A stretch of DNA of 63,951 nucleotides, counting the filler. It is 5 parts of 5 records of this genome, joined end to end, with 100 filler letters (N's around TTAATTAATTAA, not from the genome) between each part and the next. Parts side by side here need not be neighbours in the genome. Positions count along the whole stretch, not along the records: positions 19,574 to 41,798 come from DRR723986_10580; 4 more parts are not named here. The stretch is one strand, 5' to 3'. Below, in pieces: positions 27,689-42,051 of this stretch. How positions within the stretch are numbered: position 1 is the stretch's first letter; every line of letters starts with the position of its first letter. The position numbers and the translations under genes were made by a program. The notes below the pieces were generated by a model. The model was not told where the DNA came from. It ran no database searches and saw only the letters and a program-made list of their open reading frames with translations.

Positions 27689-27792
27689 GTAGCACGGAGG
27701 TCCCCACCGTGAATTAGGGATGTCACAGGTAAGCGTGCGTGATACCGTTGAACGCGTCAGATAGTAAATGCAGGCAAGCTGCCTGCACTACG
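27689..27792. repeat. GTAG-family REP pair
   Basis: GTAGCACGGAGGTCCCCACCGTG and inverted ATGCAGGCAAGCTGCCTGCACTACG; the latter matches 41769-41792 with one mismatch. Confidence 0.7.
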
Positions 27793-28011
27793 ATGCTGAA
27801 GAGGCTTTCCCACGAAACGACCGTCGCGACCTGGAAGCAAGCGGTTACGCGATGTCGCGTGAACTGATCTTGGATTTCTCTGTGCTTCTGTGTCTCCGTG
27901 AGACGATTCGTACGCGCAACCGGTTAACTACGACTTCGCATCGTCGCTAACCGATGAAACATACGTGTACGGCAAGACAGACTGATCAACGAGCGAAACA
28001 CTGGGCGTTTT

Positions 28012-37080: not shown

Positions 37081-39672
37081 TTAGATGATTGCAAGTGGGT
37101 TCCTGGGTTGCTCGAGCGTTCCTCGGGTGACGCCAATGCGGTTGTCGGCGTTGAGTTCTTTCCAAACCGTCGCACCGTCGACTTCCCCTTTCAAGAGGCT
37201 CCGATACAGGCTTAGCAACTGACGCGTGACTTCGATCGGCGTGTCCCGAAGCAACTCGACACGAAACTGTTTCACGCCCAATTGCACCAACAGCGCGACG
37301 GCCTCAGCGCCGCTTTGCGCCGACCCGTTGTACAACGTGTTGCGGCAACCAATGTCGGCATGCAGAACATGATCAGCGCCGACGCGATCCCGCAGTTTGA
37401 CATCATGGCGGTCGCACGGACGTCCACAATCGGATTTGTTCTTTCCAGGACTTAGAACACTGCAGAACACACAATGCTCCATGTGAAACATTGGGATGTG
37501 TTGGTGGATGACAACTTCCAGCCACTTAGGCGGAGTGTGCTGGACGAGCTCGATTAGCTGGTCGCGGTTCAAATCGTAGGAAGGAGACAATCGGCTCGCT
37601 CCCCATTGCTTCAAGATGCTGGCCGTGATCGGGTTGGTTACGTTCAGCGAAAAATCCGCGGCAAACGGGATGTCGTTCTCGCGGGCGTATCCCATGGCAG
37701 CCAAGTTCCGAACCAACCAACCGCTGCACCCTGTTTGGTCAGCACTTCGCCCACGCGAATCACGATAATGTCGATGAAGCGCTTTGAACAGTCCGTCTTC
37801 GCCAGGTTTGTGAATGCGAAGCGTGGCCAGTTCGACGCTCGCCTGAGCCTCCTCGGTCAATTCGCATGCCTGCCGGTATTCTCTCACATCGTGCAATTCT
37901 GCGATGAGTGTCTTGCAGCCAAGTTCAAGTGCTTGTTTAACCTGAGGAAGGCTTCGACAAAGTACTCGCAACTCTGACTCGGCCGCACTTGCGGAGCCAT
38001 CGCTGGCGTCGCTTCCACGAATCTGATTTAGCAACCTCGGCGCTTCGGATTCACGCGTGCAACGCAACGCTTCAGGGGACGTCGCATTCAAGATGGCCGT
38101 GACAAGTTGCTTGCGAATTTCTCCAAGTATACTGTGCGGCAGCATTGGCTCTCCAACGATATCCGCGTCGAGTTTGCCAAGTCGCAGGGTTGTTCCGCCC
38201 AGACGATCCAGTTGCTCTGCGATGCGTCCGTCGTCGATAGGATGCTTGCGAGCAACCTCTGGCGTAAATGAGTGCTCGAAGCAAATCTGTGCGGAACTAG
38301 CGGACTTTGCCACAACGCGGATTGGCTCTCCAACGGCCACGCGTATCGAGACGTCTACAGGAATTCGCTTGACCGGATCTTCACCTTGAAAGGTCCTTCG
38401 AAGTCGTTTAGTCAACTGTGGATCGTCTGTTTTGTACAGTTTTACGCCCGCCGCAATGTGCCCGATCTCGGAAATGAAATGTGGCAGTGCTCCACGCTGG
38501 AAGTACAAATCAGCTAGACCGCCATCAAGATGCTTCTGCGACGACTGACGTTGCCTCGACTCTTGCTGAACCGTACGAAGCTCATAGACTCGGCCACCAA
38601 ACTCTTGCTCCGCGGCCCTGTCTCCTTCTACAACGACTCCGTCGCCAACCGAGATTGGCCCCGAGAGCTCGACGCGAAGGGCATCACCTCGCACTTCCTT
38701 AATGCGACCGATCTCAACTCCCCGCTTTGCACTACTCTGCCCAGGCACGAGACGCTTGTGGTCGCAGCCTTCAAGCCAGCCGGGAGAGAAGCCGCGTGAG
38801 AAACTCAACTCGAGTTCTCGAGATTGTTCCGCAGTGAGTTTGCGGGAGCGCCCCTCGAGCGCTTCATCGATTGCCTTGCGGTAGTGACTGCACACATTGG
38901 CGACATACTCCGGCGTCTTTAAGCGTCCTTCGATCTTCAGCGAGCACACTCCCGCGTCGATCATCTCAGTAATGTAATCATGGGCCGCCAGATCCTGAGG
39001 ACTAAGCAGGTATTGCTGCGTACCCAGATCAACTTTTTCACCGTCGCGGTAAATTTCATAGGGCAATCGACATGCTTGTGCACACTGGCCACGATTGGCG
39101 CTCCGCCCTCCCAACGACTCGCTCGTCAAGCACTGGCCAGAGTAGGCGACACACAGGGCTCCGTGAACGAACGATTCAACCGGCAATTGGGTCGCATCGG
39201 TAATCTTATCAATCTCGCGAATCGAGAGTTCGCGGGCTAGCACAGCGCGACTGACGTTGAGCTCTTTGACGATCTCAATTGCCTGCGCGTTGGTCAGGGT
39301 CATCTGCGTGCTCGCATGGATTTCCATCTCGGGGCAGATCGCACCGATCAACTTCGCAACACCCAAGTCCTGGACCAGGACCGCATCAACTCCCGCAGCG
39401 GCAAGCGCTCGCACGTTCTCTTCAAGCTTCGGCAGTTCGTCGGTGAACACGAGCGTGTTTAAGGTCACGTAGCCCCGCACGCCTTGCCCGTGCAGCATCT
39501 TCATCAGGTCAGGCAAATCGTCGAGATGGAAGTTGGCCGCCCGGGCTCTGGCGTTGAATCCGGCATCCAGGCCGAAGTAAATTGCATCAGCGCCGTTCTC
39601 GACCGCCGCCTTGGCACACTGCCAATTGCCAGCAGGCGCAAGGAGCTCAATTTCAGATGGTCGTTTGCTCAT
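37081..39672 (-). CDS. peptidase U32-family protein with DUF3656 (RlhA-like RNA hydroxylase)
   Basis: ELLAPAG, GADAIYFG, HASTQM, HGALCVAYSGQC, RSANRGQCAQACR, SLKIEGR; second degenerate U32 domain at the C-terminus. Confidence 0.9.
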   Translation of the reverse strand: MSKRPSEIELLAPAGNWQCAKAAVENGADAIYFGLDAGFNARARAANFHLDDLPDLMKMLHGQGVRGYVTLNTLVFTDELPKLEENVRALAAAGVDAVLVQDLGVAKLIGAICPEMEIHASTQMTLTNAQAIEIVKELNVSRAVLARELSIREIDKITDATQLPVESFVHGALCVAYSGQCLTSESLGGRSANRGQCAQACRLPYEIYRDGEKVDLGTQQYLLSPQDLAAHDYITEMIDAGVCSLKIEGRLKTPEYVANVCSHYRKAIDEALEGRSRKLTAEQSRELELSFSRGFSPGWLEGCDHKRLVPGQSSAKRGVEIGRIKEVRGDALRVELSGPISVGDGVVVEGDRAAEQEFGGRVYELRTVQQESRQRQSSQKHLDGGLADLYFQRGALPHFISEIGHIAAGVKLYKTDDPQLTKRLRRTFQGEDPVKRIPVDVSIRVAVGEPIRVVAKSASSAQICFEHSFTPEVARKHPIDDGRIAEQLDRLGGTTLRLGKLDADIVGEPMLPHSILGEIRKQLVTAILNATSPEALRCTRESEAPRLLNQIRGSDASDGSASAAESELRVLCRSLPQVKQALELGCKTLIAELHDVREYRQACELTEEAQASVELATLRIHKPGEDGLFKALHRHYRDSRGRSADQTGCSGWLVRNLAAMGYARENDIPFAADFSLNVTNPITASILKQWGASRLSPSYDLNRDQLIELVQHTPPKWLEVVIHQHIPMFHMEHCVFCSVLSPGKNKSDCGRPCDRHDVKLRDRVGADHVLHADIGCRNTLYNGSAQSGAEAVALLVQLGVKQFRVELLRDTPIEVTRQLLSLYRSLLKGEVDGATVWKELNADNRIGVTRGTLEQPRNPLAII

Positions 39673-39863
39673 CAGGCTTTCAACAGTTCAGACGCGTACT
39701 CGTGCCAAAAATCCGGGTTTGTATTTTCCGGCACGACTTGGCATGCGTAAAGACGCAAAGCGTTGGCGGCACGCCACTTTCCTACATTCTCCGCAATTCG
39801 TCACGGCTACGGTGGAGGCAAAGAATGCAGTTGCGTCAATCTAGAAGCCCGCGCGGTTCGTAC

Positions 39864-41438
39864 CTAGCTGACGCGGCGGAGTGCATCGCGGAGTCGTTGG
39901 CCTTCGCTGCGATCAACGGATTCGATGAAGGCGATCATTCCGGACAACCACCCGCGAAAATTCGCGTGACCATCGCGGTTCTGCGCGTCGAGCCCTTCGA
40001 ACTGTGCACGGTGGAGGATTGCCCGTATGCGACGGCGGGTCTTCCGAGAGACACCCACTCGGTCGTTAGTCGTCAGTCCCGTCACCACTTGACGTTGGTG
40101 CTTTCGAAGCACACGTGTCTTTGCTGAATTGAGTGCAAAGCCCTCGTCTTCGCAGATATGACGCAATCGTGCGAGAACGTAACCGATCTGCTTTTCTTTC
40201 TCGTGCATCGAACTCTGCTTAGCAGAGAACGATAGATCATCTGCGTAGCGAGTGTAAGTCCAGCCGAGTTTGCTAGCCAGACCACTGAGCCGAACGTCAA
40301 GATGCCTGCTGGTTAAATTAGAAAGCGCCGGACTGGTACAAGCTCCTTGAGGAAGACTGGGTAAGCCGCTGGCGACCAAGTATTGCTCTTGACGGTAACT
40401 AACGGCTGTCCGGCGACTCTCTGTACACAGGCTTGCCATCAGAGTAGCTACAGCGGGTGAATAGCCCAGGGATCGAAACAGGCCTTCGATGCGATAGAAG
40501 TGGATAGACGGAAAGAAGTCTTTCAAGTCCACACTGATGAGAATGTCCGCCCCGACGTGCGGAGTGGCCCCCGTTGTAATGCTTCGGCCTTGAACGAACC
40601 CGTGCGCCGAATCGTGAGCGGGTAACATGTTCAGCACATTGTCCAGTATCCATCGTTGGACGCTGGCCAACAATGGAAGCGGCCGTGCTAGTTCGCGTTC
40701 CCCGCCGCTTTTCTTTGGAATCGTAAAGTGAACGTAGTGGACCTGTTTTGCCGCCTGGGCATGAAAGGCGAGCCAGCGGAGTTGCGGGATCGTGATGCCG
40801 ATTGCACCAGCCAGATCAGCAGGCGTGCTCAGCAATGGAAGCTGGTTCTGGCGAAGCATCTCGATGTTACTGCGCCGATCCGACAACCCCTTGGAGATTC
40901 CTCTACCAATGTAGACAATGTCGGTGCGACGATTCTGCTCGACCCTCGCGCGGTGCTCATCGCGCCGCCGCTGTGCCTCTGCCTTCTTTTGCTGCTTGAG
41001 GCGTTCACTTTCCTGGCGAGACTGGCGAACTGCGGCATCACCGATGGCTCGCGTTGCCGCAGCATCCTTTCGGTACTTGGCCATCTCCAAGCCGACTTTG
41101 TGTATCTCGACCAAGTCATCGTCGCTCAAGATTCCCATCGATACCATGGTTCGATCAATAATGCGAATCCGTGGGAGATCAGCGGGCGGAATCTCGTTGA
41201 GCGAATCGAGATAAGCCGACTGCCAGCCGTCCGACTTCGTTAGCGAAAGTGCTTCTTCGGCGGACAGTGGTTGGAAATGTGACGCGTCCAGGCCGGATTC
41301 CAGTTCGGATGGAGCGGTGCGAGCATCGTGCAGCGAATTGCTGCTGTCGGTTAAGGTCGCGGGTAGTTGCGAATAGTCATTTCCGGGCTGTTGCTGGCCA
41401 GGCGAGACGAGACGCTTGAGGAAATCAAACAGTCCCAT
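39864..41438 (-). CDS. retron-type reverse transcriptase with long N-terminal extension
   Basis: IPKKSGGERELARP, AHGF, GATPH (region X), DLKDFFPSI, LPQGACTSPALSN, YTRYADDLSFS, VVTGL (region Y). Confidence 0.92.
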   Translation of the reverse strand: MGLFDFLKRLVSPGQQQPGNDYSQLPATLTDSSNSLHDARTAPSELESGLDASHFQPLSAEEALSLTKSDGWQSAYLDSLNEIPPADLPRIRIIDRTMVSMGILSDDDLVEIHKVGLEMAKYRKDAAATRAIGDAAVRQSRQESERLKQQKKAEAQRRRDEHRARVEQNRRTDIVYIGRGISKGLSDRRSNIEMLRQNQLPLLSTPADLAGAIGITIPQLRWLAFHAQAAKQVHYVHFTIPKKSGGERELARPLPLLASVQRWILDNVLNMLPAHDSAHGFVQGRSITTGATPHVGADILISVDLKDFFPSIHFYRIEGLFRSLGYSPAVATLMASLCTESRRTAVSYRQEQYLVASGLPSLPQGACTSPALSNLTSRHLDVRLSGLASKLGWTYTRYADDLSFSAKQSSMHEKEKQIGYVLARLRHICEDEGFALNSAKTRVLRKHQRQVVTGLTTNDRVGVSRKTRRRIRAILHRAQFEGLDAQNRDGHANFRGWLSGMIAFIESVDRSEGQRLRDALRRVS

Positions 41439-41476
41439 CGGTGTTACTCCGCGAAGCCAAGCTGAAGATGTTGAAA

Positions 41477-41714
41477 TGCCGAGTGGTGCGAGCGAGCTTT
41501 GCTAACTTCATTCCACGGACCAAAGACGTTCACCAAGGCCGACTCCGCCTATGTGGACGATCGAAAGCCTTGGCTTGATCGTGGTCGATCGCCACATAGG
41601 CGGAGTCGGCCAAACGAACAACGGCTTCTGGGGATGAATGTCTGAGAGTCTCCAACCACGGCGGATCGCCGCAGCAAGCTAGTCTTAGTTCGGCTGCGCC
41701 ACGCACCACCGGCA
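41477..41714 (-). ncRNA. putative retron msr-msd RNA
   Basis: Terminal inverted repeats 41702-41714 and 41477-41490; short msr-like stems; perfect 20-bp stem 41537-41556/41592-41611; directly upstream of the RT. Confidence 0.8.
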
Positions 41715-41722
41715 GTACCGCC

Positions 41723-41751
41723 AATGTACCGCGCCCACTAACCATTTTCCA
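41723..41751 (-). promoter_or_regulatory. candidate sigma70-type promoter of the retron
   Basis: TGGAAA-17 nt-TACATT ending 8 nt before the first inverted-repeat arm. Confidence 0.45.
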
Positions 41752-41768
41752 GGACCGCAAGTCCCCAC

Positions 41769-41792
41769 CGTAGTGCAGGCAGCCTGCCTGCA
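41769..41792 (+). repeat. GTAG-family REP at the contig end
   Basis: CGTAGTGCAGGCAGCCTGCCTGCA, same family as 27768-27792. Confidence 0.75.
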
Positions 41793-41798
41793 ACCGGC

Positions 41799-41898
41799 NN
41801 NNNNNNNNNNNNNNNNNNNNNNNNNNNNNNNNNNNNNNNNNNTTAATTAATTAANNNNNNNNNNNNNNNNNNNNNNNNNNNNNNNNNNNNNNNNNNNN
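41799..41898. other. artificial contig linker
   Basis: N/TTAATTAATTAA/N spacer. Confidence 0.98.
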
Positions 41899-42051
41899 AC
41901 AGTCGGCATGGCAGCGTCTAACTGCAGGGCGCATCGGAGGTAGTAGCCCGGCCGCGACGGGGCATGGCTCACTGGACTATGTCCGAGGGACTTCGACGCT
42001 GCCTCAACAGGACGCTACCTATCGAGCCACGGAACCAAAGGCTTGAGTGAC

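Follow-up and report, generated by a model that had tools for sequence, protein, structure and literature searches.

Our study identifies the reverse transcriptase (RT) gene and the adjoining non-coding RNA, which occupy the right-hand end of the window's third contig (19574-41798), as the core of a type XIII retron, probably an ordinary one whose accessory genes are present past position 41798 and are missing here through a break in the assembly. The window, that is, the whole stretch of 63,951 nucleotides that was analysed, is composed of five contigs with four artificial joiners (N44, TTAATTAATTAA, N44) between them and is not one molecule. The features of the locus and its surroundings are collected in Table 1.

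Table 1. Features at the end of the third contig, in window coordinates
Feature	Position	Strand	Basis or remark
Peptidase_U32 gene, downstream of RT	37081-39672	(-)	E 1.3e-97
Retron RT, type XIII, 524 aa	39864..41438	(-)	PADLOC RT_XIII, tree, motifs, model
msr-msd non-coding RNA	41478..41714	(-)	bounded by a2/a1 inverted repeats; profile match, covariation
a1 repeat	41498-41478	(-)	long-range pairing with a2 (41714-41694)
Long msd hairpin, ~28 bp, near-perfect	41537..41612	(-)	predicted template for msDNA stem
Apical loop motif AAGCCAAGGCUU of msd hairpin	41565-41576	(-)	
Conserved msr stem-loop (GCUGCGGCG-AUC-CGCCGUGGU)	41655..41675	(-)	helix 3
a2 repeat	41714-41694	(-)	long-range pairing with a1 (41498-41478)
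Promoter-like hexamers TGGAAA (41751-41746), 17 nt, TACATT (41728-41723)	41723..41751	(-)	weak candidate
REP-like repeated GC-rich palindrome at contig end	41762..41798	.	recurs in window and metagenome runs
Artificial contig joiner (N44, TTAATTAATTAA, N44), non-biological	41799..41898	.	N run starts at 41799

By its sequence, the RT belongs to type XIII (clade 10 / RT_XIII). Its best PADLOC model is RT_XIII (495.9 bits, E 3.2e-149), followed by RT_other at 352.8 bits and then a model at 332.1 bits, while RVT_1 is the only Pfam domain found in the 524-aa ORF (E 3.5e-14) and the NCBIfam retron models match below their cut-offs. The reading frame contains no stops and keeps all catalytic motifs; the QG (Q364 G365), YADD (398-401) and VTG (452-454) pointed out by an earlier, sequence-only reading of this DNA are all found, and they occupy invariant columns in the alignment with relatives. 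An AlphaFold model built from a 13-row alignment has a mean pLDDT of 81.9, and the nearest solved structure is the retron Ec86 RT, in which the core is aligned over profile positions 207-534 (E 3.3e-65).

We placed the RT in a maximum-likelihood tree of 39 rows, made up of the window and 38 loci chosen out of 218 to span the type XIII subgroups and outgroups. It falls within an 11-row clade with support of 100/100, together with RTs from eight planctomycete genomes, an Isosphaeraceae MAG (L001) and a Polyangiaceae MAG (L036); the sister of this clade, with weak support (95/77), is L204, a locus that has ARM-SWIM. Identity to the clade members and L204 is 45-50%, and no closer relative was found in a set of one genome per species, in JGI metagenome contigs (none above 48% identity) or in 401 sampled Planctomycetota genomes. 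The phylogenetic placement, which the sequence-only reading had proposed as a check, is thus that of a retron RT among planctomycete and myxobacterial type XIII RTs, and together with the top RT_XIII score and the homology of the msr-msd RNA it upholds the proposal of an Mx162-like type XIII retron with a long N-terminal extension. We also observed another group of retron RTs (L189-L202), present in many planctomycete genomes and 37-49% identical over residues ~190-520, which is without the N-terminal extension and has SWIM upstream in 0 of 14 cases; one of its members, L193, groups with an Acidobacteriaceae RT outside type XIII.

The planctomycete host assumed in the sequence-only reading is supported by the HisRS encoded on the retron contig, which shares 66% and 64% identity with its counterparts in two of the sampled Planctomycetota genomes; some 34 of the sampled genomes fall within 56-66%, and the rest at no more than 48%. 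The hosts of the RT clade are distant from the window host (HisRS 43-47%). Since the two genomes nearest by HisRS contain no orthologue of the RT, and a weak SWIM-like match or none, synteny gives no help, and the window's U32, AP-endonuclease, Tct and HisRS genes give no matches in the related retron loci. Elsewhere in the window, we found a bacterial RNase P RNA of class A (2266-2721; 291 bits), which carries insertions, its 456 nt being set against a model of 367 positions, and a tRNA (169-241). The last contig (58162-63951) has a GC content of 0.508 compared with 0.53-0.55, and two of its proteins carry DUF7619 and Por_Secre_tail (type IX secretion sorting) domains. Such proteins are typical of Bacteroidota rather than planctomycetes, and this contig may be a binning contaminant.

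The region upstream of the RT was analysed in the same way. The 360 nt between the RT ATG and the contig end give a fold z of -5.0 against shuffles, and the a2/a1 span lies 40-276 nt upstream of the ATG, where the sequence-only reading had seen a structured non-coding region (40-280 nt); the 39-nt gap between RNA and RT contains no ORF, also as described there. Aligning the region upstream of the window RT with intergenic sequences from nine clade members (10 sequences) brings out a strongly conserved core formed by the msr stem-loop, a CCCCA...GCCGUUGUUCGUUUGG block and a variable-arm hairpin, with further conserved parts in the apical AAGCCAAGGCUU motif and in the GGUGAACG...UGGUCC and GAAGUC blocks. 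The msr stem-loop is nearly invariant across the 10 sequences, with 97.8% of its cells paired, and the arms of the msd hairpin (helices 5 and 6) vary in sequence among relatives while keeping their complementarity. In the RNAalifold consensus, 25 of the 45 pairs are compensatory; 89.4% of cells are paired on this structure, a share that falls to 33-50% if the partners are shifted by 1-3 columns, and for none of the five pairing measures is the observed value attained by any of 500 shuffles; as the structure was derived from the same alignment, these figures favour it somewhat. All seven helices are kept in the window RNA. An nhmmer profile of the relatives' RNAs matches 41469-41716 with an E value of 7.6e-51, the window being among its 10 training rows, and also finds the RNA of L036, which is outside the training set (E 1.7e-19). 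Rfam has no matching retron family for this RNA and returned only chance-level miRNA-hairpin matches to the msd stem. The window RNA is homologous to the RNAs lying between SWIM_XIII and RT_XIII in eight canonical loci and, judged from those homologues, it is a genuine msr-msd RNA of the same family as the RNAs beside canonical type XIII systems.

Special attention was given to the accessory genes of the relatives. In the parts of Mestre et al. 2020 (PMC7736814) that were available to us, type XIII is defined by a linked SWIM/winged-helix/DEDE protein (cluster 114), often preceded by a HEAT/ARM protein, and the gene order of the relatives agrees with this definition. The layout given by PADLOC is HEAT-ARM_XIII or WGR_XIII, then SWIM_XIII, a gap and RT_XIII, all on one strand (L036, L002, L005, L009 and L011); the WGR gene was also matched at L003 and L004, where the ORF filter had dropped the SWIM frame. 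Eight of the ten other members of the RT clade have HEAT/ARM and SWIM genes upstream of the RNA on the same strand, one has a SWIM remnant and one has none. When up to 20 kb around each of nine full-length planctomycete homologues was searched by tblastn with ARM, WGR and SWIM proteins, ARM and SWIM were found directly upstream in seven (L203-L208 and L210, the ARM gene of L204 being cut by a contig end); L209 has the last ~210 SWIM residues only, and L001 has neither gene upstream. Among the best 30 planctomycete loci, SWIM lies upstream in 15 of the 16 whose RT scores at least 274 bits and in 0 of the 14 weaker ones, which have no N-terminal match and which, where they were placed in the tree, fall outside type XIII. 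Across all phyla, SWIM is upstream on the same strand in 45 of the 53 loci with an RT above 250 bits; among the remaining eight, four offer under 700 nt of DNA upstream, L037 and L018 have their accessory genes downstream, L030 has ARM only, and L001 has nothing.

This comparison of homologous neighbourhoods, which had likewise been suggested at the outset, gives no support to the claim that the retron is a self-contained unit lacking an effector, since only 84 nt separate a2 from the contig end, on the very side where most relatives carry HEAT/ARM and SWIM. That no effector gene is visible is literally true: the window contains no linked SWIM_XIII or HEAT/ARM gene, PADLOC detected no SWIM, ARM or WGR protein in 33 of its 50 ORFs of at least 180 aa (the 17 left out overlap longer ORFs), and tblastn with seven ARM/SWIM/WGR queries gave no window match above 60 bits. 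However, these 84 nt are all the sequence available on the side where an effector would be looked for. The gene that follows the RT downstream, likewise on the minus strand, is the housekeeping-type U32 gene, as had been noted; the small ORFs of the 191-nt gap between it and the RT were checked and offered nothing of note. It is also correct that upstream there is only a REP and the contig end.

The contig end itself also points to an assembly break. The REP-like palindrome, GTGCAGGCAGC[C/T]TGCCTGCA, has two copies in the window (41762-41798 and 27767-27795, the palindrome at 41773-41794 being repeated at 27767-27788) and more in metagenome runs. Four sequencing runs, all listed as DNA, contain part of the stretch as short contigs, and the parts without cover in X2-X4 carry no information. 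The likeness of other contigs from X1, X2 and X4 to the window is confined to 41762/41767-41798, beyond which they diverge; one near-identical contig of X4, with 5 differences over 197 nt, extends 123 nt beyond 41798. We conclude from this divergence and this extension that the assembly broke at the repeat and that the DNA continues. Because the contig is broken at a repeated palindrome located 59-80 nt upstream of msr, the accessory genes would most likely lie just past 41798, absent only from the assembly. A standard SWIM/ARM cluster just beyond the contig end, which the sequence-only reading had itself named as the arrangement that would speak against it, is therefore the most likely one.

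The letters before the break were also considered. The last 84 nt were compared in three frames with the tails of the relatives' proteins as a possible SWIM C-terminus, and no likeness was seen; the sole frame that stops before msr has 19 codons, too few to judge, and shows no likeness to SWIM C-termini. The palindromic repeat is unlikely to be coding. The distance from the SWIM stop to the RT start, with starts as chosen in our analysis, is 300-474 nt in planctomycete relatives; the same stop precedes a2 by ~10 to 230 nt, as judged visually in the alignment, and by no more than ~84 nt in about half of them. Because these 84 nt show no likeness to a SWIM tail, a SWIM gene, if present, ends further upstream than in half of the relatives, and this lowers our estimate for its presence from highly probable, as the clade frequency alone would have it, to probable. 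At the start of the next contig (41899-42010), an inverted repeat (41910-41921 / 41992-42003) was observed, together with the only window copy of the motif GCCGCGACGGG-N-GGCTCAC (41951-41972); letters resembling this motif come after a REP copy in run X2. The contig ends at 41798 and 41899 both seem, from these letters, to lie in one repeat family; the shared letters show only that a repeat is present at both ends and were not taken as a sign that the two contigs join.

A different explanation, which we consider unlikely while still giving it some weight, is that the system is split, the RT-RNA module being unlinked and its accessory genes lying elsewhere in the genome and acting in trans. There is a precedent within the same RT clade. 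In the Isosphaeraceae MAG G001, the RNA and RT (L001; contig 41, 3484-5422) are flanked by SpoVG and a TadA-like deaminase, and the 3.7 kb upstream contain neither SWIM nor ARM, while contig 29 (L214; 8309-12088) carries an intact, abutting HEAT/ARM-SWIM pair in mid-contig with no RT or RNA after it. The orphan SWIM most resembles those partnered with this RT clade (45-53% identity) and is only 36% identical to the other, frameshifted SWIM of G001. As judged from these gene neighbourhoods, the RT-RNA module of G001 is truly unlinked, a split type XIII retron. In the window itself, the adjoining U32 gene and the GC content, which is even across the RT and both flanks, would fit the same arrangement, and the REP-like element and the sensibly spaced hexamers would fit an intergenic region with its own promoter. 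Nevertheless, such an arrangement was found in just one of the ten other clade members and one of the 16 planctomycete type XIII loci, the promoter match is at chance level, and 84 nt is too little sequence to tell.

Regarding the promoter, the letters and the spacing given in the sequence-only reading are present, and their position, 9 nt before a2, is plausible for a candidate; however, the match reaches 8 of 12 consensus positions, no better than chance, and the hexamers are not conserved in the relatives of the 10-sequence alignment. With a cut-off of 9/12, the scan of 39600-41798 returned 0 sites against 0.9 expected, and nothing usable came from the promoter and terminator scan. If the split reading were true, it would mean that the parts of a tripartite retron do not have to share an operon and that RT-RNA cassettes are able to move, or to persist, without depending on their effectors.

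We regard as quite improbable that this is a decaying or effector-less retron, in which the accessory genes were lost or truncated and the RT and RNA alone have a reduced or non-defence role. Such a state is exemplified by L209 (G336 contig 244, 8307-11060), where the RT and RNA are intact and the upstream SWIM is reduced to its C-terminal ~210 residues; L208 of G181, whose RT is near-identical, carries the complete ARM-SWIM pair, and from this comparison the accessory gene of L209 looks to have decayed recently. Mestre et al. 2020 (PMC7736814), in the part available to us, also indicate that type XIII tracks the host 16S and may be domesticated. The locus described here, on the other hand, has kept every catalytic motif of an RT frame free of stops as well as the seven helices of its RNA, and no remnant is visible, as the sequence ends.

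The proposal that the N-terminal extension doubles as the effector, which would give a one-gene retron comparable to types XI and XII or I-C, can practically be set aside: the extension is indeed long (~190 aa) and its residues 1 to ~124 lie outside the RT_XIII match, but it is conserved in L204, L207 and L210, all with ARM-SWIM, Pfam adds no domain to RVT_1, no extra globular domain is modelled, and a PDB search gave no solved structure matching profile positions 1-206. The extension comprises residues 1 to ~190, the RT fold beginning at about residue 180-200, and its elements follow each other as an MGxFDWL start, a proline-rich linker, a PW.GR.D.IPPA...LIDRAMV...EIH.VG.EM block, a charged helix and a DIVFLGRGVS motif. 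All of them are common to clade members having ARM-SWIM, and the MGxFDWL start and the PW.GR.D.IPPA...LIDRAMV block are kept in the three loci just named. In the AlphaFold model, residues 11-47 are disordered and are followed by short helices and one 67-residue helix (106-172). Because it is common to ARM-SWIM-bearing relatives and models without an extra globular domain, the extension is a feature of the clade and not a substitute effector. It could serve as a docking site for the HEAT/ARM protein, whose co-evolution with the type XIII RT is reported by Mestre et al. 2020 (PMC7736814).

Returning to the ordinary type XIII retron as the preferred reading, we can outline how it would work. The RNA, which precedes the RT gene, would be transcribed on the minus strand over ~41714 to 41478. 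The RT would, by analogy with retrons that have been studied, bind the msr stem-loops and prime from the 2'-OH of a guanosine next to the a2/a1 duplex, and the msd part, including the 28-bp hairpin, would be copied into multicopy single-stranded DNA (msDNA) still joined to the RNA. The RT and msDNA would then act with a SWIM zinc-finger/winged-helix protein bearing a DEDE motif and with a HEAT/ARM-repeat protein, both of which are encoded, in this retron type, directly upstream of msr on the same strand. Since no functional study of type XIII retrons was found in the literature searched, this mechanism rests on analogy with other retron types, and msDNA production and any defence role of the present locus are presumed.

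As it stands, this retron matters little, being one more planctomycete member of type XIII, and its one unusual feature, the lack of an effector, is most likely an assembly artefact. The comparison nonetheless defines a well-supported subclade of Planctomycetota and Polyangiaceae marked by an extra-long N-terminus of the RT and by strong covariation in the msr-msd RNA; it could serve as a model for a type that, as far as the searched literature goes, has had no functional study. The unlinked RT-RNA module and orphan ARM-SWIM pair of G001 offer a better place than the window to ask about action in trans.

With respect to known systems, type XIII corresponds to RT clade 10 and includes Retron-Mxa1/Mx162, Mxa2/Mx65, Nex2/Ne144 and Sau1/Sa163 (Mestre et al. 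2020, PMC7736814, in the part available). Like this type, the locus described here has RT_XIII as its best score, an N-terminal RT extension and an msr-msd directly upstream of the RT, and its nearest relatives carry SWIM (cluster 114-like) and HEAT/ARM genes; unlike it, no accessory genes are visible, as the contig ends. It also departs from the RT_XIII profile by ~120 more residues before the matched part, which are common only to the planctomycete/Polyangiaceae subclade. The Ec86 RT (PDB 7v9u, 7v9x and 8qbk) is alike in its aligned core, but it has no counterpart of the N-terminal ~200 residues and is paired with another accessory protein; our PDB search returned no type XIII structure. Finally, a 2026 SPIRE survey (PMC13712802), in the portion available to us, includes 143 type XIII candidates, 26 of them in Planctomycetota, a group that it rates a 'known-type expansion'. 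Our locus is of the same retron type and from the same phylum as those candidates, and it represents a combination of type and phylum already published in that survey.
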